Assembly: GCA_016291655.1 (NCBI GenBank)
Contig: JAEEYF010000089.1
Span: 40,197 to 104,196 of the forward strand
Direction of reading: 5' to 3'
Source of the DNA: Lachnospiraceae bacterium
Lineage (GTDB): Bacteria; Bacillota; Clostridia; Lachnospirales; Lachnospiraceae
DNA length: 64,000 nt
Of the stretch, positions 19,935 to 35,061 are shown piece after piece. A model generated the notes under the pieces. The model was not told the origin of the DNA, did no database searches, and saw nothing but the letters and a program-made list of their open reading frames with translations. The position numbers were made by a program, and so were the translations under genes. Within the stretch, counting starts at the first letter, position 1, and each line of letters begins with the position of its first letter.

Positions 19935-20843
19935 ATGGAAAACAGTGTAATAAAGGTAAAAGATCTTAAAAAAGAATATAAGAGTTTCAAGCTGGATATT
20001 CCCGAGCTTGAGATACCGAGAGGATTTGCCACCGCACTCATCGGTGAGAACGGAGCCGGAAAGACCACACTTTTGGATATTTTAACCGGCATCAGGCTTG
20101 ACTATACGGGCGAGCTGGAATATTTCGGAAAATATTCCTCCGAGGATATCGAGAAAAACCCGGAAGTCAAGGAAATGATAGGCTATACGGGCACGGAAAA
20201 CTACTATATTCTGAGCTGGACCGTGGGCATGGTTAATGAGCTGTCGAAGCTCTTGTTTAAAAAGTATGACGAGGAGAAGTTTAAGAAGTATCGTGATGAG
20301 TTTGCGATCCTTGGCAAAAACAATCCGGGCTCCTCTTGCTCCGACAAAAAGAGAATCAGCGAGCTTTCGGACGGAACCAAGACAAAGCTGATGCTGGCGG
20401 GAGTTCTTGCAAGAGAGACGGAGATGCTCATCCTGGACGAGCCGGCATCTCCTTTGGACCCGCTGATGCGCGACAGGCTGTGTGAGGTGATCCGTGATTA
20501 TCTGAATTCAGGTGAAGGAAGGAGCGTATTCTTTTCAACCCACAACATCGCAGATATGGAGGGCGTAACGGATTATGCCGTCATCATGGAGAACGGGCGC
20601 ATTGCCGAGAAGGGGTTTGTAGAGGATCTCAAGGAAAAATATATTGCTGTAAAGGGCGAACCCAAGGACATTGAGGCTGCGAAAAAGGTGCTCTACAGCA
20701 TCACTACGTCAAAATACGGATTTGAAGGCATATGCCTGGCGGAGGACCTTGACAAGCTTGCGGGAATGGACATTGTGACGGAGACGGCCAACCTTACGAA
20801 GATCGCTGTGGCGATCATGAAAAAGAATGCATCGATCGCATAA
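19935..20843 (+). CDS. ABC transporter ATP-binding protein (YtrB-like)
   Basis: Walker A GENGAGKTT, signature LSDGTKTKL, Walker B LILDEP. Confidence 0.9.
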   Translation: MENSVIKVKDLKKEYKSFKLDIPELEIPRGFATALIGENGAGKTTLLDILTGIRLDYTGELEYFGKYSSEDIEKNPEVKEMIGYTGTENYYILSWTVGMVNELSKLLFKKYDEEKFKKYRDEFAILGKNNPGSSCSDKKRISELSDGTKTKLMLAGVLARETEMLILDEPASPLDPLMRDRLCEVIRDYLNSGEGRSVFFSTHNIADMEGVTDYAVIMENGRIAEKGFVEDLKEKYIAVKGEPKDIEAAKKVLYSITTSKYGFEGICLAEDLDKLAGMDIVTETANLTKIAVAIMKKNASIA

Positions 20844-21535
20844 TGAAAGGAGCTGTTGACATGAACAAATTAGAATGGGCATGTTATGCATGCTTTACGC
20901 CACGTTACTACAGGGGGATATCGATATTTTTTGCGGTATTGTGTTCGGCCGCAGGGGTGCTGGCATCGGTCGGTTTCGGTGTTTGGGGAGCCATGATAAT
21001 GCCCTACTTGCTTTTCCTGGTCATGGGAATGACGGATTTCCTTGTGTTTGCGGGAAGTACTGAGAGAAATTCGGGGGATATGAATTTTATCAGGTCCTCG
21101 GGTTACGGCATGAGCTATATGAGAAATGTGTACAAGACAGACATAATATTTAAGACCGTCTTAAATGTCTTCGGAACGCTCGGAAGCATCGTATATTGTT
21201 TCATATTGGGACCGGTACAGGGCTTATATGCTTTGATGTGCTGTGAACTCCTGTTGGTGATCCTGATGCTTACGTTGGTGACAACAAGGCGAAAAGTAAT
21301 GACTTTGAACGCACAAACCCCCTATTTTTATGCAGGGTCTATAGCATTGCTTCTCTGTGACGGCGCTATGGTGTTTCTGATCCTGAAATTCGGAAATGAC
21401 AGGTTTTCATGGGTTTTGCCGTTGATCCTGGACATAGTTTTCGGGGAACTTACGGTTTGGGCTTGCTTAAGACTGTACAGAGAAAGCAATCGCGGTTTTG
21501 AAAGCGGCTACAGGCCGAATGAAAATGTGGTATAA
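20843..21535 (+). CDS. Polytopic membrane protein, putative ABC permease partner
   Basis: About six predicted TM helices. ATGA overlap with the ATPase gene. Confidence 0.6.
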   Translation: MKGAVDMNKLEWACYACFTPRYYRGISIFFAVLCSAAGVLASVGFGVWGAMIMPYLLFLVMGMTDFLVFAGSTERNSGDMNFIRSSGYGMSYMRNVYKTDIIFKTVLNVFGTLGSIVYCFILGPVQGLYALMCCELLLVILMLTLVTTRRKVMTLNAQTPYFYAGSIALLLCDGAMVFLILKFGNDRFSWVLPLILDIVFGELTVWACLRLYRESNRGFESGYRPNENVV

Positions 21536-21570
21536 GTTGCCGTATACGGCAGTATGTCAGAGGTGATGTT

Positions 21571-22359
21571 ATGAAATTTAAGGATATATTTAAAATGTTG
21601 AAATTCGGTGGCCAGTGGAAGCAGATGCTGGTAATGACGATATTGTTCCCTATTATGGGATATATATTTGAAGTAGCTCTGATCGTCGATCTGTTCAGGT
21701 TTTCTGCGGATCCCGCCGCTTTCAACAGTGTAGCGGGTAACTGGGTGTTCAAAAGATGGGGTTACGAGCCGGGGTTTTACTTCGGGATATCATTTGTCTA
21801 CCTATATACGGTAATGAAAACCCTTTGCGCGTCCAAAGCTGTGGGGGCATCTCCGTTAAAAAATGTTATCAGTACAAAGGCTCCCACGAAGATCAGTATG
21901 CTGGTGGCTGTTATCGTTAATACCGGTTTTGTGGCAATACAGATTGCTGTGACTCTGGTGTTCAGAGCAAAATATCCGGATCCGACGCCGTTGCAGTCAG
22001 AGCTTCTTGAAATGTTTTATGTATGGATGCTCATGGCGGTGATAAATTATCTGTTTGTTTATGTGTATCTGGGATTTGCGGTGACACGCTATTATATTCC
22101 GGCAATGATCTGTATTTTTGCCGTGGAGGCAGGATGGCTGGTGTTTGCGGGACAAACGGGAATGCAGCCTGTAAGGGATTATGTATACGGCGGACTGCTG
22201 AATGCCTTCGGAAGCGTGGGAGCTCATGTGGCAGTCTGTGTCGGCAGCTATCTGATCCTCTTCCTTTCAGGTTTGATCAACTATCTGATCAATAAGGCAA
22301 TGTACAGAAAACCTATGCTCGGATTCATGTCAAGACTGTATATCAAGGGTAATGTTTAA
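21571..22359 (+). CDS. Polytopic membrane protein, second putative permease of the ytrABCD-like operon
   Basis: About six or seven TM helices. Same operon. Confidence 0.55.
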   Translation: MKFKDIFKMLKFGGQWKQMLVMTILFPIMGYIFEVALIVDLFRFSADPAAFNSVAGNWVFKRWGYEPGFYFGISFVYLYTVMKTLCASKAVGASPLKNVISTKAPTKISMLVAVIVNTGFVAIQIAVTLVFRAKYPDPTPLQSELLEMFYVWMLMAVINYLFVYVYLGFAVTRYYIPAMICIFAVEAGWLVFAGQTGMQPVRDYVYGGLLNAFGSVGAHVAVCVGSYLILFLSGLINYLINKAMYRKPMLGFMSRLYIKGNV

Positions 22360-22496
22360 TTCTCACCAAACATTAATCCGATTTTAATCTTTCCGATATT
22401 TTAGATTAATTTTGATGCTTTATTATAGGATCATCGGTTGAGAGAAAACCGAAAATCAATTATAATAGTGATCGAAAATGATCGGAAAGGGAAATC

Positions 22497-23057
22497 ATGG
22501 ATAATTTAGAAAAAGTTGAAAAGATCAGGGAAAAAACAGGAGTTACATACGAGGCCGCAAAGGAAGCGCTGGAAGCATCGGAATATGATATTCTCGACGC
22601 CATAGTATATCTTGAGAAGAACGGCAAGGTTAAAGGTCCCGAGGTTCAGGTTGTTACCGTTGAAGAGGCTGAGGACAAGAAGGAAGGCCGTGAAAAGTTC
22701 AAGAAGACGCAGGATGAGTACGAGAAGAACTGCAAAAAGAAGAAAAAGAATTACATCAATGAGTTCTTCAAGTACATCGGCATTCTGTTAAAGAAGAGCG
22801 TTGACACAAGCTTTATTGTTGAAAGAAAGCATGAAAACCTTATCACAATGCCCGTGCTTGTTCTGATCATTTTACTGATCTTCATGTTCTGGCTTATCTG
22901 CCCGCTCATTATCGTTGGTCTGTTCTGCGATTGCAGATACAGATTTGAGAGTGAAAAGAACACAAAGTTTGATATCAACGAATTTTGCGACAAGTGCGCA
23001 GACGGTGCGGAAAACATAAAGAAGGATTTCTGCAACTGCGATGATGACAATCAATAA
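22497..23057 (+). CDS. Hypothetical membrane protein with an N-terminal UBA/EF-Ts-N-like domain and a Cys-rich C-terminus
   Basis: VTYEAAKEALEASEYDILDAIVYLEKNG (UBA-like), a basic K-rich segment, one TM, and a CDC...CDKC...CNCDDD tail. Confidence 0.55.
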   Translation: MDNLEKVEKIREKTGVTYEAAKEALEASEYDILDAIVYLEKNGKVKGPEVQVVTVEEAEDKKEGREKFKKTQDEYEKNCKKKKKNYINEFFKYIGILLKKSVDTSFIVERKHENLITMPVLVLIILLIFMFWLICPLIIVGLFCDCRYRFESEKNTKFDINEFCDKCADGAENIKKDFCNCDDDNQ

Positions 23058-23080
23058 GCTGAATTTTGTAGGGTGAGAAA

Positions 23081-23758
23081 ATGGAAAATCGGATCCTGAT
23101 CGTTGAGGATGAAGTAAAAATTGCGCGCTTCGTGGAGCTAGAATTACTCCATGAGGGCTATACGGCAGAGAAAACAGGTGACGGCAGGGAGGGACTTGAA
23201 ATGGCCCTCTCGGGCCGTTTTGACCTTTTAATCCTGGATATTATGCTGCCGGGACTTAACGGCGTCGAGGTTTTGAGACGTCTGAGAAAAGAAAGCGAAA
23301 TGCCGGTGATCATGCTGACGGCACGTGACGCTGTTATGGACAAGGTTTCGGGACTTGATGCGGGGGCGGACGATTATATCACAAAACCCTTTGCCATTGA
23401 GGAATTGCTGGCGAGGATCCGTGTGGCACTAAAACGTAGATCGGGAAACACCGGGGAAAAACACATTATTGAAGTGGGCCCCGTAAGGCTTGACAGCGAC
23501 AGATATGAGGTGACGGTAAACGGGGAGATCGTAGATCTCAGCAACCGTGAATTTGAGCTGCTTAAGCTTCTGATGACCAACCGTAACATTGTCATGAACA
23601 GAGAGACCATGATCAATGAGGTATGCGGCTATGATTATGTGGGGGAGACAAATATCATAGATGTTTATGTCCGCTATCTCCGGACCAAGATCGATGACAA
23701 GTACGGGATAAAGTTTATTCAAACAGTCCGAGGTGTCGGATATATCGTAAAGGATTAA
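23081..23758 (+). CDS. Two-component response regulator, OmpR/PhoB family
   Basis: Receiver domain (DEVK...LILDIMLPGLNG...ITKPF) plus a winged-helix trans_reg_C domain (VRGVGYIV). Confidence 0.92.
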   Translation: MENRILIVEDEVKIARFVELELLHEGYTAEKTGDGREGLEMALSGRFDLLILDIMLPGLNGVEVLRRLRKESEMPVIMLTARDAVMDKVSGLDAGADDYITKPFAIEELLARIRVALKRRSGNTGEKHIIEVGPVRLDSDRYEVTVNGEIVDLSNREFELLKLLMTNRNIVMNRETMINEVCGYDYVGETNIIDVYVRYLRTKIDDKYGIKFIQTVRGVGYIVKD

Positions 23759-23762
23759 GGCT

Positions 23763-25034
23763 ATGACTGAGATTAAGAAAATGTCGTCCATAGCCAGAAA
23801 AATAAATTTCCGATATTGGTGCAAGAGGTTCTCTGCCTTTTTTGGCTTGGATATAGTGATAACGCTCGTTATAGTGTTCAGCTATATGTACTATAACGAT
23901 CAACTGATACTGAAGTTTTGGGAGATACCGGATGAACACTGGACGAATATGATCGCCTGGGCTGACAAGTATCTGAGAGTTCCGGGCATAGTGGTCATTG
24001 GTTATGAGCAGCTCTCACTGTTTTCCGCGCTCTTTGACAGCAGTGAGGTGAGAAGAGATCTGAAACCCTTGAATGACCTTGCGATCAAGGCAGACAAGCT
24101 GAGCCGCATAGATCTTAACAACCTTAACGATCCGCTCACGGGTACTATGCCCCGAAAGCCGGCAGCCGACCAAAAGGCTGTTAAGCAGGAAGCGGAAAAG
24201 CTGAGCCGTGACGAACAGAAACGTGAGAAAAAGAGGCTTGAAAGCCTTGGTCACGCCATTGAGAGCATCTCTCCGGACGAACTGGAAAAAGGCGTGCACA
24301 CGGGAGATTCCGATCTGCAGGGCATAGAAGTGGCGCTCAACAACCTTCTGCTCAGAATGAGAGACAATCAGAGACAGCAGGCACGCTTTGTATCGGATGC
24401 TTCTCACGAACTGAGAACACCCATAGCGGTCATTCAGGGCTATGTAAATATGCTTGACAGATGGGGGAAGACGGATGAATCCGTGCTTAACGAATCCATC
24501 GAAGCCTTAAAGAATGAGTCCGAGCATATGAAGACTCTTGTGGAACAGCTCCTGTTCCTTGCAAGAGGCGACAGCGGGCGAAATACGCTAAACAAGACGG
24601 AAATAGATCTGAATGAGATCGTCAAAGATGTATGGGAAGAATCGAGTATGATCGACGACAAGCATGTCTATGTCTTTGATGAAAAACCCGGAGCAATGAT
24701 GAACGGTGATGTGGCTATGGTAAAGCAGTCGCTTAGGATCTTTATACAAAACGCGGCAAAGTACTCAAACGAGGGAGACACCATCAAGCTCAGGGTGCAG
24801 ATGAGTGACGGACATCCCGCCTATGTGGTACAGGATGAAGGCATAGGAATGCAGGAGTCCGATGTTGCTCACATCTTTGAACGCTTCTACCGTTCCGATG
24901 ATGCAAGAAATTCGCAGACCGGAGGCAGCGGACTCGGACTTTCCATTGCAAAATGGATAATCGATGCTCATGAAGGGCGCATAGAAGTCCTGTCCAGACC
25001 GGAATTCGGAACAAGATTTACGGTAACATTTTGA
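23763..25034 (+). CDS. Sensor histidine kinase (HisKA/HATPase_c), cognate to the OmpR-type regulator
   Basis: N-terminal TM(s), H-box SHELRTP, G-boxes GGSGLGLSIAK. Confidence 0.9.
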   Translation: MTEIKKMSSIARKINFRYWCKRFSAFFGLDIVITLVIVFSYMYYNDQLILKFWEIPDEHWTNMIAWADKYLRVPGIVVIGYEQLSLFSALFDSSEVRRDLKPLNDLAIKADKLSRIDLNNLNDPLTGTMPRKPAADQKAVKQEAEKLSRDEQKREKKRLESLGHAIESISPDELEKGVHTGDSDLQGIEVALNNLLLRMRDNQRQQARFVSDASHELRTPIAVIQGYVNMLDRWGKTDESVLNESIEALKNESEHMKTLVEQLLFLARGDSGRNTLNKTEIDLNEIVKDVWEESSMIDDKHVYVFDEKPGAMMNGDVAMVKQSLRIFIQNAAKYSNEGDTIKLRVQMSDGHPAYVVQDEGIGMQESDVAHIFERFYRSDDARNSQTGGSGLGLSIAKWIIDAHEGRIEVLSRPEFGTRFTVTF

Positions 25035-25042
25035 CAAAAGAA

Positions 25043-25092
25043 AACCGTACCCGCATACAGATAAATGTCTGCAAAGGGTACGGTATTTTTTT
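25043..25092. terminator. Bidirectional intrinsic terminator between the convergent HK and TPM genes
   Basis: aaccgtaccc...gggtacggt followed by a T-run. Confidence 0.7.
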
Positions 25093-25110
25093 GCTTTTAA
25101 AGGAGTTCGA

Positions 25111-26028
25111 TCAAATATGTCTTCCGCCGCCACCGTGGGATCTTCCGGAAGAGCTGTGGTGCGTGGTGCTGTGATGTGAACCGCCGCTGCTTGTGGTTTC
25201 CTGCGGGATCGGAACTGCCGAAACTCTTTTGTAAAGGAAGTTGTCCGATTGCCGGTTCAATTTAAAGGAACCCAACTTAATGTATCCCGTGGCATTGGTT
25301 GCGGGAGCAACACTCAGGAGCTGGCTCTTCAGGACACTTGTCACGCTGAAACCAACAATGAGTCCCACACCGATGGCTACGGCCAGCCATATGGGATTGT
25401 AGGAAGTGTTTACAGGCCTTCTGTAAGGATCGTAGGGCACGTAAATGTCCGGATAGTATTCATAGGGGTCATCATACTCGAAATCGTCATCCGTAACGGC
25501 GCGGTTCAAAGCGTCCTCGTAGGCTTCCACAGCAGTCTTAACATTGTCTCCGAAGTTGTAGAAAGCCCTGAAGTAGTTACCGTCTATAATGTCATCCGCT
25601 ATAAGGTCTATCTGACGTTGGATGGCATAGTCGGTGAAAACGGAGATCGCTTTACCGCAGGTGGAGATCCAGACATCATAATCTCTGCCATCCTCACTGA
25701 TGTATCTCAAAAAGCATATTCCGCTGAATTGTTCATCCGGACCGTAGCCGCTGTAATCATAGAAGTCATCGCAGTAGGCTTCGGGAGTCTTTCCCTCCAG
25801 ATCGTGAGTGGTAACCACCACGATGTCCAGATTCAGCTCGCTGCTCAGAGCCTTCAGATGTTCATCCAGTTCGGCGCATTCACTTTCCGTAAGAAGATCG
25901 GCGTCGTCGGTCACATAGTGATCGGGGTGAGGAGCAAGGGGCTCGGTTGAGCCTGCATATGCCTTCAAGGGAACTGCAAGTGCAACGGTAAGGAAGGTCA
26001 ATAAAAGTAAATTAAACAGTTTTTTCAT
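25111..26028 (-). CDS. TPM-domain protein (YgcG/YdjH-like) with TM segment and Gly/Ser/His-rich tail
   Basis: Signal peptide, TPM/MOLO-1 phosphatase-like domain (YVTDDADLLTESECAELDEHLKALSSELNLDIVVVTT), a TM helix, and a C-terminal SSGGSHHSTTHHSSSGRSHGGGG tail. Confidence 0.8.
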   Translation of the reverse strand: MKKLFNLLLLTFLTVALAVPLKAYAGSTEPLAPHPDHYVTDDADLLTESECAELDEHLKALSSELNLDIVVVTTHDLEGKTPEAYCDDFYDYSGYGPDEQFSGICFLRYISEDGRDYDVWISTCGKAISVFTDYAIQRQIDLIADDIIDGNYFRAFYNFGDNVKTAVEAYEDALNRAVTDDDFEYDDPYEYYPDIYVPYDPYRRPVNTSYNPIWLAVAIGVGLIVGFSVTSVLKSQLLSVAPATNATGYIKLGSFKLNRQSDNFLYKRVSAVPIPQETTSSGGSHHSTTHHSSSGRSHGGGGRHI

Positions 26029-26040
26029 CTTTTCCCCTCC

Positions 26041-27135
26041 TTAATGGATCCTGATCAGGTGCAGTATGAAGGACAGTATGGAGATCACTGCCGCAGTGAT
26101 GCCTGCATAAGACCAGAAATACTTGTTTTTAAGACTTTTGTCCATGGGCAGATTTCCGACGAACTTGCCTGTCTGTCCGTTCATGGCAAAGGTGAAATTG
26201 GTGTCGTTCCATTTGGTATTCAGTATCCAGACGGGAAGGAGAGCATATTTCGCCGAGGTGTTTGTAAGACTGACGGCGGAACTCTCCGTCTTAAGCGAGG
26301 AATAGCCTCTCACCGTGTCCTTCAGCATTGAGACCGAACTTGTCTTTATTCTTGAATTTGAGCGTTCTGCCGATTCTTCCGACGTAACGTCGTATTTGTC
26401 CGCAAGATAGCCTGCCATATAGGCGGTCTGAAAAGGAACCGCGGCCCTGTAGTCATAGGGCTCAAGTGAGTCCATAAGGGCGTTGTCCATCTTGGTGGAG
26501 GCATCGACGGGAACATTTTCAAAACGGAGATTTCCCTCTCTTGTAATGGAGTAAGTGGATTTCTCGGTATAGATGAACCTGCTGTCCCGCCAGGAACGGA
26601 TCTTTTCTCCGGAGTAGCGGGCATTCGCTTCCGCATCCGCCGAGAAGAGCCAGAAGGGGACATAGACACCCAGGATCTCTTCAATATGATTTTCATCCTT
26701 AAAGACCTTGGGAAGCAGCTTTTTACCCATGAGATGCTGTGCCATGGCCTTTTTGGCGTCGTCCTTGTCCAGCTTAAAGGGAATCACCAGATCGGGCTTC
26801 AGTCCGCCCGCAAAGTTTCCCATTACCACCACGTTGTTTCCGCAATAGGGACATGAGGTGGCAGCCATATTTTCATCGCCTATGATCTCTCCAGCGCAGG
26901 AGGCGCAGGTGAAGACCCTCATGTTTTCCAATTCGGAGTTGCTCCATTCGGTGCTTTCTCCGAGATTCCATTCTATTTCGTCGGCTCTGTCATCCGCCAG
27001 ATCTTTGTCTAATTGTTCCAGTGCGGACATTTCGAATTCCGTATCGCAATAGGGACATTTCATTTTTTGAATGTCCGAGTTGAACTCTATTGCACCGCCG
27101 CAGCATGGACACTTGTATTCCTGTAATCCGTTCAT
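26041..27135 (-). CDS. Zinc-ribbon membrane protein (YdjG-like); in an operon with the TPM protein
   Basis: Three CxxC-type pairs (CPCCGG, CPYCDT, CASCAG...CPYCGN), a large soluble domain, and a C-terminal TM helix (YAGITAAVISILSFILHLI). Confidence 0.7.
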   Translation of the reverse strand: MNGLQEYKCPCCGGAIEFNSDIQKMKCPYCDTEFEMSALEQLDKDLADDRADEIEWNLGESTEWSNSELENMRVFTCASCAGEIIGDENMAATSCPYCGNNVVVMGNFAGGLKPDLVIPFKLDKDDAKKAMAQHLMGKKLLPKVFKDENHIEEILGVYVPFWLFSADAEANARYSGEKIRSWRDSRFIYTEKSTYSITREGNLRFENVPVDASTKMDNALMDSLEPYDYRAAVPFQTAYMAGYLADKYDVTSEESAERSNSRIKTSSVSMLKDTVRGYSSLKTESSAVSLTNTSAKYALLPVWILNTKWNDTNFTFAMNGQTGKFVGNLPMDKSLKNKYFWSYAGITAAVISILSFILHLIRIH

Positions 27136-27345
27136 ACTAAGATAGCCCTCCCTTTTGAGTTATAATTGTACAGTAAATGTCGCAAATGTGCAATCTGTCA
27201 TTTCCGACAGTGAAAAATATCCTGTCATGTGAGATAATCCATATGGGGAACTTCTTGCCCTACGCCCCGCTTTAGGGTATATTAAATATGAATTCTTTTA
27301 AGCAAAGTATGGTCGGGACTGCAAGTCCCGCTTCGGAGAAGGAAC

Positions 27346-28998
27346 ATGCGTGAAAAGATCGGGAAAACACAGGTTAATACCGCGATATTTGTTGTAATGA
27401 TAGCGTTTGCCGCAACTCTCAGGCACGTTCCGGTAAACGGAGAGTTTATGAGGCTGCTGGTTGCCATGCTTCGTCCGATTGTTTATATCATTCTTTTCGG
27501 ACTTTGGGGCATATCCATCGGAAAGCGTATCGTTCATGAGAGTATCAGAAAGATACTGATGTCCATAGCGGCACTCATGATATTCTGGATCTGTGTAAGG
27601 ACGCTTAAGTACAACAGCGAGAACTACGCCGTCATAAGATATTCCTGGTATTGCTACTACATCTCACAGCTTTTTATCCCCACTCTGTTTTTCATCGTGG
27701 CTTTTCTTTTGGGAAAGAAGGAGAGTAACGTGCATTCGGGCAAAAGAGTCATATATCCCGTGTTTGCAATAAGCCTTGCTCTTGTGCTTCTCGTACTTAC
27801 CAACGATCTTCATATGCTTGTTTTTGTATTTGACGGTAAGCCTTACACCGAAAAGAACTATACCCACAACATCGTGTTTTACCTGGTGTGGGGGTGGATG
27901 GTCCTCCTTGCCCTTTATTCTGTTGTTTCCATAGTCAGAAAGTGCAGGATCTATAAAAAGAAAAAATTTGCGGTTCTGCCGCTGGTAGCCATATCCCTTG
28001 CATTCTTATATGCAGTGCTGTCCATGCTCGGAAATCCCGTGATCAAATTTGTTGCGGGCGACATGACGGTAAGCTTTTGCGTTATATATATGTTTATAAT
28101 CGAGAGCTGCCTAAGAAGCGGCCTTATTACGATAAACACCGGCTATGAGGAGTTGTTCAAGCGGTCAAGCATACGTGCCCAGATCCTGGACGAGTCCTAC
28201 AACACCTTCCTTTCTTCCAAGGATGCGGTTACCTATCCCTTTGAAACTCTCAAAGAGACGGAGTGGGGGCCTGTTCTGCTTGAGGACGGGATCCGGCTTT
28301 CCAACTTCAAGATCAACTCCGGCCATGTTTTGTGGCAGGAGGATACGAGCGGTCTTGTCAAGGTAATGAGAGAACTGGATGAGGTAAAAAAGGAACTGGA
28401 GGGACGTAATGCGGTGCTTGCGGAGGCGTATAATACCGAGAGGAACATTCACCGTCTGGAGGAGCAGAACCGCCTTTACGACTCCATAAGAATGAAGACC
28501 AGCAAGCAGATCGATATGCTCTCACAGCTCCTCGGGGATTATCGTGAGGCAGAGACCCACGAAGAAAGGGCAAAGATACTTAAGCATATAATCGTTGTCG
28601 GAGTTTACATCAAACGACGCAACAATCTGATCTTTATCAACGAACAGAGCAATGTTATCCCGGTCCGTGAACTGGAACTTTGCTTTGAAGAAACCGTGAG
28701 CAATCTGGAATTGGCGGACATCAGAAGCAGCTGCTTCATAAATGTGGGAGACGAGATCGACCTGGAAACGGCGACCGCCATGTACGATCTTTACGAAAAG
28801 GTGTGTGAAGCCGTCTTCGGACGGATAGATTCCATGCTGATCCGGATATACAGGAAAGAGAACGAATATTATATGAGCATAGATGTGAGCTCGCTCGGGA
28901 AATTGGAGATCGACATCCCGGAGGTCAAGGTTTCCGAGGAGGACGGAGTCTATTGCATCTCCGGGAGTTTTGCGGCTCCGAAGGAGGTGGCGGAATGA
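27346..28998 (+). CDS. Polytopic membrane sensor-like protein (about eight TMs, a coiled coil, a C-terminal domain with no obvious catalytic motifs), translationally coupled to a soluble histidine kinase
   Basis: 550 aa. The TM-rich N-terminal half is followed by LDEVKKELEGRNAVLAEAY...EEQNRLYD coiled coil. Its stop overlaps the HK start (ATGA). Confidence 0.65.
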   Translation: MREKIGKTQVNTAIFVVMIAFAATLRHVPVNGEFMRLLVAMLRPIVYIILFGLWGISIGKRIVHESIRKILMSIAALMIFWICVRTLKYNSENYAVIRYSWYCYYISQLFIPTLFFIVAFLLGKKESNVHSGKRVIYPVFAISLALVLLVLTNDLHMLVFVFDGKPYTEKNYTHNIVFYLVWGWMVLLALYSVVSIVRKCRIYKKKKFAVLPLVAISLAFLYAVLSMLGNPVIKFVAGDMTVSFCVIYMFIIESCLRSGLITINTGYEELFKRSSIRAQILDESYNTFLSSKDAVTYPFETLKETEWGPVLLEDGIRLSNFKINSGHVLWQEDTSGLVKVMRELDEVKKELEGRNAVLAEAYNTERNIHRLEEQNRLYDSIRMKTSKQIDMLSQLLGDYREAETHEERAKILKHIIVVGVYIKRRNNLIFINEQSNVIPVRELELCFEETVSNLELADIRSSCFINVGDEIDLETATAMYDLYEKVCEAVFGRIDSMLIRIYRKENEYYMSIDVSSLGKLEIDIPEVKVSEEDGVYCISGSFAAPKEVAE

Positions 28999-29981
28999 AG
29001 CTTTTTAAAAGGAGAAAAGGGCTGAGCACCGATTCGATAAAGGAAGCCTTTGATAATCTTCCCACAGGCATATGCTTTTTCGACTCAAACGGCTTTGTAA
29101 AACTTTGCAATAAGACCATGCACAAGCTGTCCCATGATCTGAGCGGGCATGATGTGCAGTATCTCCGCGAGTTTGAGGATACACTGAAGAACCCCGGAAG
29201 CAAGTGTACGAGGCCTATGGACGGGAAGTACTACTTCATGGCGGACGGAACGGTCTGGATGTTCGGCAAGAACAGCATTGTGGGAGCACAGGGTGCAAAA
29301 TACACGGAATTTGTGGCATCCGAGGTCTCCGAACTGTATCAGAGGCTGGATGAACTGAATACAGATAATAAAAAAATGCTGGAGATCTCGGGAGAGATCA
29401 AGAAAATGTCGGCAAATGTTCTGACCATAACAAGAGAAGAAGAAACACTTTCCATGAAAATGAGGGTACATGACGAGATGGGAAGGAGTCTTACGGCAGC
29501 GAGAAAGCTGCTTCAGCAGGGCGTGCTCCTGGAAAAGGACAATCCCGTGACCGAGACATGGCAGAGAGCGACCGAGATACTTAAACGAAGCAATGATGAG
29601 CCGGAGAAGAAGGATATGCTCGATGAACTCAGAGAAGCCTGCAAGGGAATGCTGAACATACACCTGAAGGGTACTTTGCCCGAGAAGGAAGAGACTGCCT
29701 ATCTTTTAGTCGTGGCCATAAGAGAATGCATTACAAATGCCATAAGATACGGCAATGCCACCGAGCTTTATGTGAATGTTGAAAAGCAGGAAGGCAAAGT
29801 GATCGCAAAGATCACAAATAACGGAGAGCCGCCCAAGGGATGGATAGTCGAAGGCGGCGGCTTGTCATCACTCAGAAGAAAGATAGAAAGAGCGGGTGGT
29901 CTGATGGAGATCAGATCACTTCCGACCTTTGAATTAACCGTGATCCTGCCCTGCGATGAGCTGATGGGCAGGCTGATCTGA
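28995..29981 (+). CDS. Cytoplasmic histidine kinase, HisKA_3 (NarL-partner type)
   Basis: H-box RVHDEMGRSLTAARKLL. N/G boxes ECITNAIRYGNA...GGGLSSLRRKIERAGGLMEI. No TM segments. A PAS-like N-terminus. Confidence 0.85.
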   Translation: MKLFKRRKGLSTDSIKEAFDNLPTGICFFDSNGFVKLCNKTMHKLSHDLSGHDVQYLREFEDTLKNPGSKCTRPMDGKYYFMADGTVWMFGKNSIVGAQGAKYTEFVASEVSELYQRLDELNTDNKKMLEISGEIKKMSANVLTITREEETLSMKMRVHDEMGRSLTAARKLLQQGVLLEKDNPVTETWQRATEILKRSNDEPEKKDMLDELREACKGMLNIHLKGTLPEKEETAYLLVVAIRECITNAIRYGNATELYVNVEKQEGKVIAKITNNGEPPKGWIVEGGGLSSLRRKIERAGGLMEIRSLPTFELTVILPCDELMGRLI

Positions 29982-29996
29982 CCGGGAGGGAACGGT

Positions 29997-30635
29997 ATGG
30001 TAAGAGTATTGATAGTTGAAGACCAGAAAATGGCCAGAGACAGTATGGTGGGCTATGTGGAAAGCGGCAAGGACTATGTGCTTGCAGGTACCCTTAAAAA
30101 TGCCGGCTCAGCGGAGGTCTTTTGTGCGGGACATCCGGTGGATCTCATACTTATGGATGTCTGTACCGAGTATGATGAAAGCGGCCTTGATGCTACGGCG
30201 GTAATTAAAAAACGTTATCCCTCCATAAAGATCATAATTGTGACATCCATGGTGGAATGCAGTTTTTTGGACAGAGCACGGGAAGCGGGTGCTGACAGCT
30301 TCTGGTACAAGGAGACCGAGACGGAGGAGCTTCTGAACGTCATGGACAGAACGATGGCGGGAGAGAGTGTCTATCCCGAAAGGACGCCCGAGGTGAGACT
30401 CGGACTTACCACCAGCTATCATCTTACGGGAACGGAGCTTTTGGTCCTGAGAACGATAATGGAGAGCAGCAACTATCAGGAAGCGGCGGATAAGATCGGC
30501 TGTACGGAAAGAAACATAAGGTTTCATCTTAATAATATTCTGGACAAGACCGGATACAGAAATCGCTTTGAATTGTGCATGGCTGTATCACAGAAAAAAC
30601 TGATCATAGTCAACCCCGACAACGAATTGTTGTGA
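29997..30635 (+). CDS. Response regulator, NarL/FixJ (LuxR-HTH) family
   Basis: Receiver domain (IVEDQ...LILMDV...IIIVTS) plus a C-terminal LuxR-type HTH (LTGTELLVLRTIMESSNYQEAADKIGCTERNIRFHLNNILDK). Confidence 0.9.
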   Translation: MVRVLIVEDQKMARDSMVGYVESGKDYVLAGTLKNAGSAEVFCAGHPVDLILMDVCTEYDESGLDATAVIKKRYPSIKIIIVTSMVECSFLDRAREAGADSFWYKETETEELLNVMDRTMAGESVYPERTPEVRLGLTTSYHLTGTELLVLRTIMESSNYQEAADKIGCTERNIRFHLNNILDKTGYRNRFELCMAVSQKKLIIVNPDNELL

Positions 30636-30723
30636 AAATGATCAAAACTGTCAAATGTGACAGTTTCTTTTGAAGGGTTTTATGCCATAATATGTCTTGC
30701 ACCGAGACAAAGAGGAGGCATAT

Positions 30724-31296
30724 ATGGGCATTTTAAAAACCTTGTTTAAATCGCCCGTGCCCGTCGAAGAAAAGGGTGTGTCGGGTGGTTACACGGAAAA
30801 GAGAGCGGAAAGGATAGAGATCGCTTTCGCCGAGTTACCGAAGAATGTCAAAGAAATGAAAGAATTACCCGAAGCGACACTCGCAGATCCTTTTAAGACT
30901 GCGGCACTCACGGTTTGCGCATTCTGCGTTTATGTGTCCGATGCGGCAAAGGGCGTGGAAATGATCAACTATCTGAAAGGGCCTCAGGAGCTTTCGATCT
31001 ATGACAGGCAATTGATAAAGGATAATCTTGAAGGAAAGAGTTACCTGCCGTTTTCATATTTCAAGGGAGCTTTTCCGGAAAATGAGTATCAGCCGTCGAA
31101 ACCCTATATCATAGAGGTTCAATCCAATGCATACTCGTATAATGAAGACGGATATGCAAAGATGTATGTTCAATCGAGCGGATCGGATTCACTCAGATCC
31201 ATAACTTTAAGAAAAAAGGCTGAACAATGGTTCTTATGGGAACAGATGATTTTGGCTGACATAAGGAAGCCGCTATCTGCTGATCCTTGGGCATAA
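30724..31296 (+). CDS. Hypothetical cytoplasmic protein
   Basis: RBS GAGGAGG before the ATG at 30724; no recognisable domain. First gene of the SPFH operon. Confidence 0.5.
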   Translation: MGILKTLFKSPVPVEEKGVSGGYTEKRAERIEIAFAELPKNVKEMKELPEATLADPFKTAALTVCAFCVYVSDAAKGVEMINYLKGPQELSIYDRQLIKDNLEGKSYLPFSYFKGAFPENEYQPSKPYIIEVQSNAYSYNEDGYAKMYVQSSGSDSLRSITLRKKAEQWFLWEQMILADIRKPLSADPWA

Positions 31297-31331
31297 AAAA
31301 ACATATTTAAATCTGAAAGGAGATCTATATT

Positions 31332-32669
31332 ATGGGACTTATTTCTGCAGTAATTAATTCAGCGGGTTCGGTATTGGCCGATCAATGGAAGGAATTCTTC
31401 TATTGTGATTCTCTCGCTAAAGACGTGTTGGTGGTAAAGGGGCAGAAAAGAATAGGACCGAATTCCTCGAACGTAAAAGGAGCAGACAACATTATTTCCA
31501 ACGGCTCGGGTATTGCCGTAAATGAAGGACAATGCATGATCATTGTTGAACAGGGTAAGGTTGTTGAGATCTGTGCGGAACCCGGACAGTTCACGTGGGA
31601 TTCATCCTCTGAACCTTCGATCTTCTGCGGTTCGCTCGGAAAGAATATCATTAACACTTTCAAAACCATCGGTAAGCGTATTTCTTACGGTGGAGATACA
31701 GGTAAAGATCAGAGAGTTTACTACTTCAATACGAAGGAACTTATTGATAATAAATTTGGTACGGCTAATCCCGTTCCCTTCAGAGTTGTTGATTCCAAGA
31801 TCGGACTCGACATCGACGTATCACTTCGTTGCTCGGGCGTTTTCTCTTACAGGATCGCAGACCCCATTCTTTTCTACTCAAATGTTTGCGGTAACGTAAC
31901 AAGTGCTTACACACGTTCCGAGATCGATGCCCAGCTTAAAACGGAATTCATATCCGCTTTACAGCCCGCCTTGGGAAGACTTTCCGCACTGGAACTTCGT
32001 CCCAACCAGATCGTGGCACATACAACGGAACTTGAAAATGCGATCAATGACGCACTTTCGTCCAAGTGGGCAGAGCTCAGAGGACTTACGGTTGTTTCCG
32101 TAGCTCTCGGCTCCGTAACACTTCCCGATGAAGATGCCGAACTCATCAAGCAGGCTCAGCGTACCGCTATCATGAGAGATCCTACCATGGCAGCAGCTAC
32201 ACTTGTAGGAGCTCAGGCAGATGCTATGAAGGCAGCGGCTTCTAACAGTGCAGGCGCAATGACCGGATTTATGGGACTTGGTTTTGCACAGAACGCAGGT
32301 GGCGGCGGAATGAACGCTCAGAACCTCTTTGCTATGGGACAGCAGAATCAGCAGCAGGCAGCACCTCAGGCAGCAGCGGCAGCACCCGCAGCAGCTCCCG
32401 CAGGAAGCTGGACATGTAAGTGCGGAACCGTCGTAACAGGCAAGTTCTGTCCCGAGTGTGGAAGTCCCAAGCCCGCAGAAGAAGGCTGGACATGTAAGTG
32501 CGGTGCGGTAAACAAGGGCAAGTTCTGCCAGAACTGCGGCGCAAAGAAGCCCGCCGGAGCACCTCTTTACAGATGCGATAAGTGCGGTTGGGAACCCGAA
32601 GATCCCTACAACCCTCCGAAATTCTGTCCCGAATGCGGTGATATTTTTGATGACAACGATGTAAAATAG
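31332..32669 (+). CDS. SPFH/band-7 domain protein with three C-terminal zinc-ribbon repeats (COG4260, YdjI-like)
   Basis: N-terminal SPFH-like domain. Q/A-rich linker. Three WTCKCG/YRCDKCG ... CPECG zinc ribbons. Confidence 0.8.
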   Translation: MGLISAVINSAGSVLADQWKEFFYCDSLAKDVLVVKGQKRIGPNSSNVKGADNIISNGSGIAVNEGQCMIIVEQGKVVEICAEPGQFTWDSSSEPSIFCGSLGKNIINTFKTIGKRISYGGDTGKDQRVYYFNTKELIDNKFGTANPVPFRVVDSKIGLDIDVSLRCSGVFSYRIADPILFYSNVCGNVTSAYTRSEIDAQLKTEFISALQPALGRLSALELRPNQIVAHTTELENAINDALSSKWAELRGLTVVSVALGSVTLPDEDAELIKQAQRTAIMRDPTMAAATLVGAQADAMKAAASNSAGAMTGFMGLGFAQNAGGGGMNAQNLFAMGQQNQQQAAPQAAAAAPAAAPAGSWTCKCGTVVTGKFCPECGSPKPAEEGWTCKCGAVNKGKFCQNCGAKKPAGAPLYRCDKCGWEPEDPYNPPKFCPECGDIFDDNDVK

Positions 32670-32688
32670 ACGATCGGAGGCGCTTTAT

Positions 32689-33459
32689 ATGGGATTATTT
32701 GACAAGAAGATATGCAGTATATGTAACAAAAAGATCGGAATTCTCGATCTAATAGGAAGCAGAAAGCTTGAAGACGGTTACCTTTGCAAGGATTGCGCAA
32801 AACGCCTCTCACCATGGTTCAGCGACAACCGTAAATCTACGGTTGAAGAGATCAGAGAACAGCTTTCATACCGTGAACTCAACAAGGAAGAGGTTGAAAG
32901 CTTTAATGCTACACGTACTATTGGCCAGAAATACAAGGTTATGATCGATGACAGATCAAACAAATTCCTTGTTACAAAAGAGTCAAAATGGCGTGAAGAA
33001 AATCCGGATGTATTGAAGTTTTCCCAGGTTACCGGTTGTGACATTGACATCAAGGAGAGCAAGGATGAGATGTATGACCGTGACAAGGACGGCAATCAGG
33101 TAAGCTTCAATCCGCCCCAGTTCAGCTACAAGTACAGTTTTGGTATTGTAATACATGTAAACCACAAGTACTTCAGTGAAATGAAGTTTGACGTTAATAA
33201 TACACTCATTGTTGAGAAAGTTGTCATGAAGCCCGGCTTCGATCCGAAGAAGAGGGAGCATGAGAATGATTATCTGGAGTGCAAAAAAATTGCGGAAGAC
33301 ATTAAGGCGGCAATTCTCGGGATCCATGAGGAAGCAAGAAATGCGGAAGAGGAAGCAGAGAAGCCGAAGGCAGCTCTTGTATGTCCGTTCTGCGGAGCCA
33401 CCACTGTTCCTGACGCTGCAGGAAACTGCGAATACTGTGGTGCCTGCATAGTGAGATAA
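32689..33459 (+). CDS. Hypothetical protein with N- and C-terminal zinc ribbons
   Basis: CSICNKK...CKDCAKR at the N-terminus. CPFCGA...CEYCGACI at the C-terminus. Operonic with the SPFH protein. Confidence 0.6.
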   Translation: MGLFDKKICSICNKKIGILDLIGSRKLEDGYLCKDCAKRLSPWFSDNRKSTVEEIREQLSYRELNKEEVESFNATRTIGQKYKVMIDDRSNKFLVTKESKWREENPDVLKFSQVTGCDIDIKESKDEMYDRDKDGNQVSFNPPQFSYKYSFGIVIHVNHKYFSEMKFDVNNTLIVEKVVMKPGFDPKKREHENDYLECKKIAEDIKAAILGIHEEARNAEEEAEKPKAALVCPFCGATTVPDAAGNCEYCGACIVR

Positions 33460-33490
33460 AAGTTAAGTTATGATTTAGTGGAGGAAAGAT

Positions 33491-33922
33491 ATGGCGAATG
33501 ATTTTTTGAATGATCTTTTGGGCAGCCTGGATGATGAAAATGTGGGTGACAGCATTGAAAAGACAATTACAAGTGCTATCGGGGCAAAAGTCAAAACCTC
33601 GCTTTCATCCTCGAAAGACAGAGTAAAAACCGATCTCGGTTCGTCAAAGAACAGAGTAAAGACCGATCTTTCCTCCGCCTCCGCTAAAGTGAAGACCACC
33701 TCCGGCGGAATGAAGCTTTCGGGAAGATCCGCATCTTTCAAAACCGGAGTCAGGAATGCTGTGAATACGATGATGAACGGCGTGGGAGAAAGCGACAATG
33801 TCGGACAGACTATTGAAGACAATATAATGTCTGCTTTTACAAATAAGTTTAAGTCCGAAAAAGACGACGAAAACGCTTCCGATCTGACAGAACTTAAGGA
33901 TCTGACGGATCTGTTCAAGTAA
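33491..33922 (+). CDS. Hypothetical low-complexity protein with tandem KxRVKTDL(G/S)SS repeats
   Basis: Repeats SSSKDRVKTDLGSSKNRVKTDLSSASAKVKTTSGG. Acidic termini. Followed by a terminator at about 33994-34037. Confidence 0.5.
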   Translation: MANDFLNDLLGSLDDENVGDSIEKTITSAIGAKVKTSLSSSKDRVKTDLGSSKNRVKTDLSSASAKVKTTSGGMKLSGRSASFKTGVRNAVNTMMNGVGESDNVGQTIEDNIMSAFTNKFKSEKDDENASDLTELKDLTDLFK

Positions 33923-33993
33923 AACAGGATTTTAAAAAAATTAAATCGCGATATAATGTATAGGCTTTCAATAAAAGGAGGCCATACAATATC

Positions 33994-34037
33994 ATATGCA
34001 AAAGGGAAGGATCAAGCCCAAGGGATCCTTCCTCTTT
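33994..34037 (+). terminator. Intrinsic terminator ending the SPFH operon
   Basis: gggaaggatc...gatccttcc followed by tctttgctttttt. Confidence 0.65.
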
Positions 34038-34182
34038 GCTTTTTTGGGGAAAAACTGCACCTTGTGACAAACATTAGGTTACCTAATAAACTCTACAAAA
34101 ACTTCTTGATTTAAAAGCGGTTTATGTTATAATGCTGATGAGAAAAGGGCGATGTTCAACGCCCGCAGATCAGGAGGGTATA

Positions 34183-35061
34183 ATGAGACCGTTTATCGTA
34201 TCTACAGATTCTACAGCAGACATTCCGGAGGATTATTTAAAAGAACATGGTGTACAGCTCCATCCGCTTCATTATATTGTTGATGGAGTGGAGTACGGCG
34301 CGGAACTTCCCGGGGGTGAGATACCTATAGTAAAATTTTATGAAATGATCGAAGCGGGAACGATCGCTACTACCAATGCCACCAACATGGGTTACGATAT
34401 TGAATTGTTTGAAAAGGCCGCAAAAGAGGGAGTTGATGTTCTCCACATCAGCTTTGCGGCATATATGAGTGCAAGCTACAATAATGCGAAGGTGGCTGCC
34501 GATCAGGTCATGGAGGAGCATCCCGAGTGCAGGATAGTGGTGATCGATTCCAAAAAGGGATCCGGGGGCACAAATCTTCTGGTAAGAAAAGCGGTGGAAA
34601 TGAAGGAGGCGGGAAAAGACTTTGATGAGACCGCAAAGTGGGTGGAAGAGGCTGTCAAAAGAACACAGGTTTACTTTTCCGTACCCAGTCTTATGAGCCT
34701 TTTTCGCGGCGGAAGACTTAAAAAATCGGCAGCCATACTCGGTACTATCCTTAAGATACAGCCCACTCTTTATATAGATGAAAAGGGAGCTTTGACTCTT
34801 CTGAACAAGGTCAGAGGAAGAAGAGCAGCAATGGATTTCCTGTGTGAAACCTTAAGACCGCTGATGGAAAGAGGGACCTTGCCCGATGAGATTGCCATCG
34901 AACACGGAAATTGTCTTGAAGATGCGGAGTTTTTGGGAGCAATGGCTGAGGACAGATTTGGCATTGAAAAAATCCATTACAATTTTCTTTGTCCGACTCT
35001 CGGAAGTCATACGGGACAGGGAATTTTAACCTTTAGCTTTATAGAAAAAGAGAAATCTTGA
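34183..35061 (+). CDS. DegV family fatty-acid-binding protein
   Basis: DegV/EDD fold motifs (IVSTDSTADIP, VIDSKKGSGG). RBS CAGGAGGG before the ATG at 34183. Confidence 0.85.
   Translation: MRPFIVSTDSTADIPEDYLKEHGVQLHPLHYIVDGVEYGAELPGGEIPIVKFYEMIEAGTIATTNATNMGYDIELFEKAAKEGVDVLHISFAAYMSASYNNAKVAADQVMEEHPECRIVVIDSKKGSGGTNLLVRKAVEMKEAGKDFDETAKWVEEAVKRTQVYFSVPSLMSLFRGGRLKKSAAILGTILKIQPTLYIDEKGALTLLNKVRGRRAAMDFLCETLRPLMERGTLPDEIAIEHGNCLEDAEFLGAMAEDRFGIEKIHYNFLCPTLGSHTGQGILTFSFIEKEKS

Follow-up and report, generated by a model that had tools for sequence, protein, structure and literature searches.

A 64,000-nt stretch of contig JAEEYF010000089.1 from a Lachnospiraceae bacterium (GenBank assembly GCA_016291655.1), which we refer to as the window, carries three same-strand open reading frames (ORFs) at positions 27346-30635 that we call P1, P2 and P3. 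P1 (27346..28998, forward strand) encodes a 550-amino-acid (aa) polytopic membrane pseudo-histidine-kinase, P2 (28995..29981, forward strand) a 328-aa soluble protein consisting of a PAS domain and a HisKA_3-class histidine kinase, and P3 (29997..30635, forward strand) a 212-aa response regulator of the NarL/LuxR type, with a receiver (REC) domain and a GerE helix-turn-helix (HTH). On balance, we favor the reading that the three proteins constitute a single three-component phosphorelay, in which P1 would be a sensing pseudokinase subunit that controls P2. The evidence comes from the invariable association of the three genes, from the predicted fold of P1 and the loss of its catalytic residues, and from the coupling of P1 to a kinase gene whose own key residues are conserved.

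P1, P2 and P3 form an obligate operon

When a single genome for each species was scanned for patterns with the P1 alignment, confirmed relatives of P1 were identified in at least 596 species genomes, and 80 loci were kept. The hosts belong to the Lachnospiraceae, Oscillospiraceae, Ruminococcaceae, Acutalibacteraceae, Erysipelotrichaceae and Peptoniphilaceae, and include the named isolates Coprococcus comes, Dorea hominis, Dorea amylophila, Oscillibacter sp. PC13, Anaeromassilibacillus senegalensis and Allobaculum mucilyticum. Wherever the contig continues (approximately 75 of the 80 loci), P1 is followed on the same strand by P2 and P3; two loci are without any P2 match, and in both of these the contig ends at P1. 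P3 lies directly downstream of P2 in all of the approximately 70 loci found through P1 that are of sufficient length. When the search was started from P2 instead, covering 80 metagenome loci, P1 was located directly upstream in 57 out of 57 loci with at least 1.9 kb of upstream DNA, and P3 directly downstream in 66 out of 66 loci with at least 700 nt of downstream DNA. A preliminary description of this locus had named co-occurrence across genomes as a check on the trio, and this co-occurrence is complete in both directions: P1-P2-P3 is an obligate three-component operon of constant gene order and strand, far removed from what chance would give.

P1 and P2 are translationally coupled. At their junction (28981..28998, forward strand), the start codon of P2 (ATG at 28995) overlaps the stop codon of P1 (TGA, 28996-28998) in the tetranucleotide ATGA, just as the preliminary description had it, and an AGGAGG Shine-Dalgarno sequence is found inside the 3' end of P1, 7 nt upstream of the ATG. 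With start codons placed properly, this 4-nt overlap is the commonest junction, occurring in most loci and with both of the forms of P2 discussed below, and it persists down to identities of about 32% for P1 and 33% for P2.

A P1 profile search covering 1.84 billion cluster representatives (clusters at 50% identity) retrieved 2281 clusters at E ≤ 1e-3, of which 967 remained when the threshold was set at E ≤ 1e-30. Among the 150 representatives listed, the majority are 545-560 aa long, and the shorter ones look like fragments. One representative, P0247 (1050 aa), contains a P1-type pseudokinase with 7 transmembrane (TM) helices, a low-complexity linker of about 200 aa and a P2-type PAS kinase in one chain. 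This protein may be a natural P1-P2 ("Rosetta-stone") fusion or an assembly artefact and, as a single case that could be artefactual, it is used here only as a hint of a physical P1-P2 complex.

These observations bear on the question of whether the genes share an operon while having independent functions, with P2-P3 acting as a cytoplasmic PAS two-component system and P1 serving, independently of the kinase, as a membrane scaffold for proteins such as the SPFH, TPM and zinc-ribbon products of the neighboring genes. Such an arrangement would fit with the fact that P2 has a PAS-like input domain of its own, and with the recurrence of membrane-maintenance genes in the neighborhood. However, these neighbor families are present in only 10-25% of the loci, while P2 is always there, and the completeness of co-occurrence and gene order in both directions, the persistence of the overlap junction and the existence of the P0247 fusion all argue for a joint function. 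We therefore regard independent functions as highly improbable.

P1 is predicted to combine a membrane sensor domain with a dead kinase fold

The N-terminal part of P1 (aa 1-263; 27346..28134, forward strand) contains, between aa 10 and 253, 8 segments that are hydrophobic on the Kyte-Doolittle scale, in agreement with the approximately eight TM helices described earlier. The last 7 of these make up the Pfam domain HisKA_7TM (PF16927), which covers aa 48-262 with a score of 40.9 bits, against a Pfam cut-off of 28.6, and is annotated in all P1 homologs; Pfam describes it as the N-terminal region of histidine kinases. Conserved polar motifs lie inside the membrane domain, namely TNDLH (aa 152-156), GDMT (aa 238-241) and E253.

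For the C-terminal 287 aa, no sequence match was found in Pfam, NCBIfam or, using phmmer, the PDB, and a 72-sequence profile of this region likewise had no match in the PDB. The fold of this part was therefore revealed by structure prediction only. A model of aa 264-550, predicted with AlphaFold2 (AF2) from an alignment of 18 family members, has a mean predicted local distance difference test score (pLDDT) of 86.7, and comprises a small alpha/beta domain that is PAS-like (aa 264-333; 28135..28344, forward strand), a 50-residue signaling helix (aa 335-384, the coiled coil of the preliminary description) with a helical hairpin resembling a domain for dimerization and for histidine phosphotransfer (DHp) (together aa 335-434; 28348..28647, forward strand), and an alpha/beta sandwich resembling a catalytic and ATP-binding (CA) domain (aa 437-543; 28654..28974, forward strand). 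Foldseek returned 89 matches in the PDB at E ≤ 1e-3, and all of the 50 matches listed are sensor kinases or kinase-like proteins, with the LOV-kinase YF1 (6e-8) and DesK (8e-7) followed by ThkA, BceS, DivL and RetS. The best structural matches of the CA domain are VraS, DesK and DevS. Both a DHp helical hairpin and a Bergerat-type CA fold are present in the model, according to which P1 is an 8-TM sensor followed by a PAS, DHp and CA fold. The length of the PAS-DHp-CA module is nearly constant across the family, being 286-290 aa in 70 of 72 loci, and 277 and 295 aa in the other two. The PAS-like domain carries a nearly invariant G-G-H-V-L-W-x-E-D motif (residues 321-335, including His327 and Trp330; 28306-28350), which is similar to the S-D-V-T-E-L in which the PAS-like domain of P2 ends, and which may represent a conserved PAS-to-helix junction or a ligand site.

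The phospho-acceptor position is occupied in P1 by Tyr378 (codon 28477-28479); an hhalign comparison of the P1 module with the P2 profile aligns E-Q-N-R-L-Y-D of P1 with M-K-M-R-V-H-D, the H-box of P2. The residue at this position is Y in 59 of the 72 loci, H in 9, F in 3 and T in 1, and among the 150 cluster representatives it is Y in 139, F in 5 and H in 3; no further conserved His occurs in the DHp-like region. At the N-box position, P1 has Glu488 (codon 28807-28809), which was placed at the N-box Asn by motif comparison (YDLYEKVCEAV of P1 against the N-box of P2) and not by a computed alignment, and which is E in 71 of 72 loci and 134 of 150 representatives. P1 has no G1 box, no G2 box and no Gly-rich motifs, and a secondary-structure comparison of the two models shows that the ATP lid and G2 helix, located at residues 276-299 in P2, are exactly what P1 lacks. 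The statement that H, N and G boxes are missing from this domain thus held up when canonical H and ATP-binding boxes were looked for: none was present, with His replaced by Tyr, Asn by Glu, and G1, G2 and lid missing. Judged by these substitutions and by the models, P1 keeps the histidine kinase fold but is catalytically dead, family-wide. The best-conserved feature of P1 is the motif G-x-Y-x-K-R-R-x-N-L on DHp-like helix 2 (28600-28635, forward strand), in which the K is found in 149 and the first R in all of the 150 representatives.

The nine loci with His at the acceptor position (L019, L020, L021, L033, L039, L040, L043, L046 and L077) encode P1 proteins that form one clade and read RLHDELH, a better DesK-type H-box than RLYD. 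Members of this clade still have Glu at the N-box position and no lid, and all are paired with P2 forms that have three TM helices. The clade supports the homology and identifies this position as the site of the ancestral phospho-acceptor; P1 might in these cases be phosphorylated in trans.

Variation is also seen in the membrane domain, as two representatives of about 770 aa (P0160 and P0196) have two tandem HisKA_7TM domains before the pseudokinase module. P0160 has His at the acceptor position (RLHDKLH).

P2 resembles DesK/DevS-class kinases and occurs in a soluble and an anchored form

In the window, P2 has no Kyte-Doolittle hydrophobic segment, and Pfam gives weak PAS matches (aa 16-64) and a weak HATPase_c match, as befits the TM-less HATPase kinase with a PAS-like N-terminus that had been described. 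The HisKA_3 class given to it on that occasion stands, although not by way of the Pfam HisKA_3 model (PF07730), which had no match to the single P2 sequence at E ≤ 1; we assigned the class from profile and fold matches in the PDB and from the H-box. A 28-sequence P2 profile matched DevS (4e-13), DosT, DesK and VraS in the PDB and nothing else, and its residues 126-321 align to residues 9-222 of DesK, spanning DHp and CA (E 2e-10). The AF2 model (pLDDT 79.7) consists of a PAS-like domain (aa 12-110), a 63-residue helix (aa 112-174) that bears His159 (codon 29469-29471), a second helix and a complete CA domain. Foldseek matches of this model include WalK, YF1 (1e-12) and DesK (7e-11), and the match list is largely the same as for P1. 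By profile and by model, then, P2 is a PAS protein with a DesK/DevS-class (HisKA_3-class) kinase.

The H-box of P2 reads MRVHDEMG, and is followed by the N-box with Asn248 (29736-29738, forward strand), an atypical G1 box, ITNNGEPP (residues 273-281; 29811-29837, forward strand), and the G2 box EGGGLSSLR (29850-29900, forward strand). Invariant in the family alignment are His159, Asp160, Glu244, Asn248, Gly277 and the GGGL of the G2 box. Because His, N box and G2 box are strictly conserved, we consider it quite likely that P2 is an active kinase. Public precomputed annotation of the P2 family gives at most HATPase_c, and in the public record GCA_016295045.1 P2 is without Pfam annotation.

Given that both proteins are kinase-like and that their frames overlap by 4 nt, P1 and P2 could be suspected to be one decayed or frameshifted kinase gene. 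However, each of the two proteins has a complete module, that of P1 being PAS-DHp-CA-like and of constant length. Both reading frames are intact, and across loci from many species the junction is kept along with a Shine-Dalgarno sequence of its own. On the grounds of these complete modules and the conserved junction we rejected a single frameshifted gene, to which we attach a negligible probability.

In about half of the family (approximately 38 of 72 loci), P2 is longer, at about 425 aa, and has a three-helix N-terminal membrane anchor. The start of this anchored form likewise overlaps the stop codon of P1. The anchorless kinase of the preliminary description is therefore found in the window and in about half of the family, but not in the other half. 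When the two forms were mapped on a neighbor-joining tree of P1, soluble and anchored P2 fell in clades, and the soluble clade of the window (with L001, L036 and L038) was placed among anchored clades, apart from a large soluble clade. As the soluble form thereby occupies at least 2 separate places on the tree, the anchor has probably been lost more than once, and this distribution suggests that it is dispensable. Repeated loss is what would be expected if P1 already holds P2 at the membrane. The idea that the three-helix anchor is a remnant of the P1 7-TM domain left by duplication received no support, as hmmsearch and hhalign found no similarity between the two.

P3 and a candidate operator

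P3 matches Response_reg (55.8 bits) and GerE (31.1 bits), in line with the LuxR-HTH response regulator reported before; its best NCBIfam matches are MadR, MctR and NarL, and the phospho-acceptor Asp54 sits in LILMDV. A GGGAGGG Shine-Dalgarno sequence precedes the ATG at 29997. The public gene call (GCA_016295045.1, L081:5700-6290) uses a later ATG, resulting in 196 aa instead of 212, while with the start at 29997 the REC domain regains its N-terminus, MVRVLIVEDQ.

The operon lies between two perfect palindromes. The first, CTGTCATTTCCGACAG (27195..27210), is found 136 nt upstream of the ATG of P1, between the operon and the divergent genes, and is a candidate P3 operator; the second, CTGTCAAATGTGACAG (30648..30663), is located 13 nt past the stop codon of P3 and about 60 nt before the DUF6935 gene, and is a candidate operator and/or weak terminator hairpin. 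Perfect palindromes of the form CTGTC-N6-GACAG occur exactly 2 times in the 64 kb of the window, whereas shuffled sequences contain 0.04 on average and none of 100 shuffles reached 2 sites. Both positions are kept in the nearest relative (L001/L083), and the downstream position is kept in the close relatives L001, L083-85 and L109, and in relatives down to 74% P3 identity. Of 68 loci, 7 have the core CTGT-N8-ACAG downstream of P3, where about 0.2 would be expected. These counts and positions make CTGTC-N6-GACAG a candidate operator of P3, a tentative assignment that we would neither firmly back nor dismiss. A general operator motif across all 80 loci was rejected, given the restriction of this palindrome to close relatives. 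In other clades, palindromes of the form ATCACCC-N4-GGGTGAT recur downstream of P3, and these may be terminators.

A fourth gene, encoding a REC-like protein of about 127 aa, is found with the trio in 38 of 72 loci (for example L055:4492-4875, L065:4040-4438 and L057:9493-9876), in 37 of them downstream of P3 on the same strand. Its presence is independent of whether P2 is soluble or anchored, and it is absent from the window. The protein is very highly conserved (MRRVVVDMQNALFADAIATAL...ANVLIMEVTAYTPWK...CKIVLVVDENTEKKLADKVR.AKKDGLID.FIYGSVS), has an apparent Glu at the phospho-Asp position and may be a pseudo-receiver.

Proposed signaling mechanism

P1 had been put forward as the likely signal-input component for a kinase without a membrane anchor of its own, and this interpretation is supported by the lack of canonical boxes in P1 and by the conserved co-occurrence of P1 and P2. 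In the mechanism we propose, a membrane-associated cue, probably a membrane or envelope signal, would be perceived by the 8-TM domain of P1 and passed on through the PAS-like domain and the signaling helix to the dead DHp/CA-like module. P2 would be recruited to this cytoplasmic module and allosterically controlled by it, either in a DHp-DHp hetero-oligomer, in the style of RetS-GacS, or through PAS/CA-like contacts between homodimers, in the style of DivL-CckA, with translational coupling providing a fixed proportion of P1 to P2. The state of P1 would then set the balance between the kinase and phosphatase activities of P2 on Asp54 of P3. Phosphorylated P3 would bind DNA, probably at the CTGTC-N6-GACAG palindromes flanking the operon, and control the operon together with its neighbors (SPFH-zinc ribbon, DUF6935, DUF4428, zinc-ribbon membrane protein and TPM).

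Several points weigh against this mechanism. The physical contact between P1 and P2 is one that we infer, and the sequence similarity of their modules is weak: the hhalign match spans 53 columns at a probability of 6.6%, and should be taken as a pointer to the correspondence of RLYD and RVHD, not as proof of paralogy. The anchored forms of P2 could be receiving membrane input themselves. In the G1 box, the whole P2 family has N275-N-G-x-P where DevS has D-N-G-R-G, with an invariant Asn in place of the adenine-binding Asp and Pro in place of the second Gly; this could alter nucleotide binding or specificity, and it makes autokinase activity likely rather than assured. Finally, across the 80 loci the CTGTC-N6-GACAG palindrome is kept in close relatives only, and its copy at 30648 could be merely a terminator hairpin.

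A closer union of the two proteins can also be envisaged, in which P1 and P2 would form an obligate heteromeric kinase with a mixed DHp bundle, consisting of a dead sensing chain (Tyr378) and a live catalytic chain (His159). In the strongest version of this idea, the conserved Tyr (His in one clade) would be modified or read by the CA domain of P2. We consider such a heteromeric kinase unlikely. If true, the large clostridial family would define a new architectural class of two-component sensors, and the DivL-type His-to-Tyr switch would have been invented a second time, independently.

Comparison with known systems

DivL of Caulobacter, which regulates its partner kinase CckA, resembles P1 in having Tyr in place of the phospho-acceptor His in a PAS-DHp-CA protein without kinase activity. 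DivL, however, is an alphaproteobacterial protein of the HisKA class that retains the N, G1, F and G2 boxes (PMC4211667), whereas P1 is closest to CA domains of the DesK/VraS class and has lost N, G1, G2 and lid. Moreover, DivL is neither operonic nor translationally coupled with CckA, and P1 differs from it in carrying an 8-TM sensor domain. Since class and hosts (Clostridia) differ and the boxes are lost, P1 is not an ortholog of DivL; by analogy, it would at most work like DivL, without being a member of the DivL family. The substitution of His by Tyr is called unique in the DivL paper (PMC4211667), and as Tyr is the family norm in P1 (139 of 150 representatives), this points to independent convergence.

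The likeness to DivL could also mean that P1 signals in the reverse direction, with its dead DHp reading the phosphorylation of a receiver (phosphorylated P3 or the REC-like fourth protein) and feeding back on P2. The DHp of DivL, with Tyr at the same His position, binds phosphorylated DivK (PMC4211667); YxKRRxNL, the most conserved surface motif of P1, lies on DHp helix 2, which belongs to the usual receiver-docking region; and a very conserved REC-like gene of 127 aa follows P3 in 38 of 72 loci. On the other hand, a polytopic domain with polar motifs, a PAS-like domain and a signaling helix together have the anatomy of an input device, and the fourth gene is absent from the window. Reverse signaling by P1 thus seems quite unlikely to us, although it and the relay of a membrane signal by P1 are not mutually exclusive.

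In the RetS-GacS pair of Pseudomonas, one protein with a kinase fold governs a second kinase, through direct contact between their transmitter regions (PMC8498467). In contrast to P1, RetS is encoded at a different genomic location from its partner, retains chemistry for phosphatase activity and transfer, and carries its sensor domain in the periplasm; the heterodimer of P1 and P2 is one that we infer. The RetS-GacS DHp heterodimer blocks trans-autophosphorylation (PMC8498467), and by the same principle P1 could be a sequestering anti-kinase that titrates P2 into inactive DHp heterodimers, and would then be a constitutive brake instead of a sensor subunit that responds to a signal. RetS is indeed among the structural matches of P1, and a fixed stoichiometry set by translational coupling would suit a titrating inhibitor. 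Yet a constitutive brake would need no conserved 8-TM and PAS-like domains, and if the two are co-expressed strictly 1:1, kinase would become free only on release by a signal, which would make P1 a sensor again. Constitutive sequestration is accordingly given only a slim chance.

Other kinase-derived proteins with a dead CA domain (RcsD, ChpT and Spo0B) keep a phosphorylatable His or a histidine-containing phosphotransfer (HPt) domain and act as phosphotransferases, whereas P1 of the window has Tyr, and His is found in one P1 clade only. Canonical HisKA_7TM kinases (PF16927) share the N-terminal 7-TM sensor domain with P1; in P1, however, this domain is joined to a catalytically dead module, and a gene of its own encodes the kinase. 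HisKA_7TM is listed among the sensor domains of archaeal histidine kinases in a census (PMC5847659).

The preliminary description had further likened the locus to LiaFSR and had left it open whether P1 was a degenerate pseudo-kinase or a LiaF-like accessory protein. The structure search proposed there for the C-terminal part returned a PAS-DHp-CA kinase fold, which favors the pseudo-kinase. LiaF and VraT consist of LiaI-LiaF-TM (DUF2157) and a C-terminal Toastrack (DUF2154/DUF4097) beta-helix (PMC11237479). We rejected P1 as a homolog of these proteins, as it had no LiaI-LiaF-TM or Toastrack match in Pfam at E ≤ 1 and the fold of its C-terminal part is not a beta-helix. What LiaFSR and VraTSR, three-component systems for envelope stress in Firmicutes, do share with the locus is the gene for an accessory membrane protein just upstream of those for a HisKA_3-class kinase and a NarL-type regulator, as well as membrane-stress-type genes nearby. 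P1 differs in consisting of HisKA_7TM and a kinase fold, and LiaS is membrane-anchored while P2 of the window is not. The resemblance, therefore, is a functional analogy and not homology.

A literature search found no paper on the P1/P2 family, or on an 8-TM Tyr-type pseudokinase coupled to a DesK-class kinase and a NarL-type regulator, and in public annotation both families are largely labeled "hypothetical protein". Bacterial pseudo-histidine-kinases are otherwise represented by a handful of individually studied cases, such as DivL, RetS and RcsD. The P1 family comprises thousands of sequence clusters, with relatives in at least 596 species-level genomes from Clostridia of the gut and rumen, and within it the change from His to Tyr is the rule. 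The trio is thereby a natural and genetically compact system for studying how a dead kinase fold signals to a live one, and among its carriers are isolates of, for example, Coprococcus comes, Dorea and Allobaculum mucilyticum. Our results also provide working names for two families annotated mostly as hypothetical, and link them to a recurrent group of genes for membrane maintenance (SPFH, TPM and zinc ribbon) that abundant commensals of the gut carry.

Neighboring genes and other features of the locus

On the reverse strand, divergent from the operon, Pfam identifies a membrane protein with a double zinc ribbon and a TM helix (26041-27135) and a TPM-domain membrane protein (25111-26028). Downstream on the forward strand are genes for a DUF6935 protein (30724-31296), an SPFH/Band_7_1 protein with C-terminal zinc ribbons (31332-32669) and a DUF4428 protein (32689-33459), likewise by Pfam. 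The recurrence of these neighbors was scored within 6 kb of the trio in the 80 loci. By clustering, SPFH recurs in 19 loci and DUF6935 in 11; by tblastn, SPFH is found in 17 loci, DUF6935 in 12, and DUF4428 and the zinc-ribbon membrane protein in 10 each. The TPM, double-zinc-ribbon and SPFH-zinc-ribbon proteins of the window have the architectures of Bacillus subtilis YdjH, YdjG and YdjL, respectively (PMC11237479), and the PspA-associated ydjG/H/L genes of B. subtilis are interpreted as membrane-maintenance factors (PMC11237479). No PspA gene was found near the trio, within window positions 13.5-44 kb. The divergent and downstream genes would make up the putative regulon of P3.

The leader of P1 contains a stem-loop, CGGGACT-GCA-AGTCCCG (27314..27330, forward strand), with a 7-bp stem and a 3-nt loop, directly before the Shine-Dalgarno sequence. 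It has no match in Rfam, in a scan of positions 24000-34500 that gave no matches at all. A scan for sigma-70 promoters found 8 sites against 9.1 in shuffled sequences, and thus no excess.

Further upstream, a separate forward-strand module at 19935-25034 encodes an ABC ATPase, two unannotated proteins, a DUF4342 protein and an unrelated OmpR-type two-component system, made up of an OmpR-type regulator (23081-23758, forward strand) and a HisKA kinase (23763-25034, forward strand). This module is kept only in the closest relative, L001.

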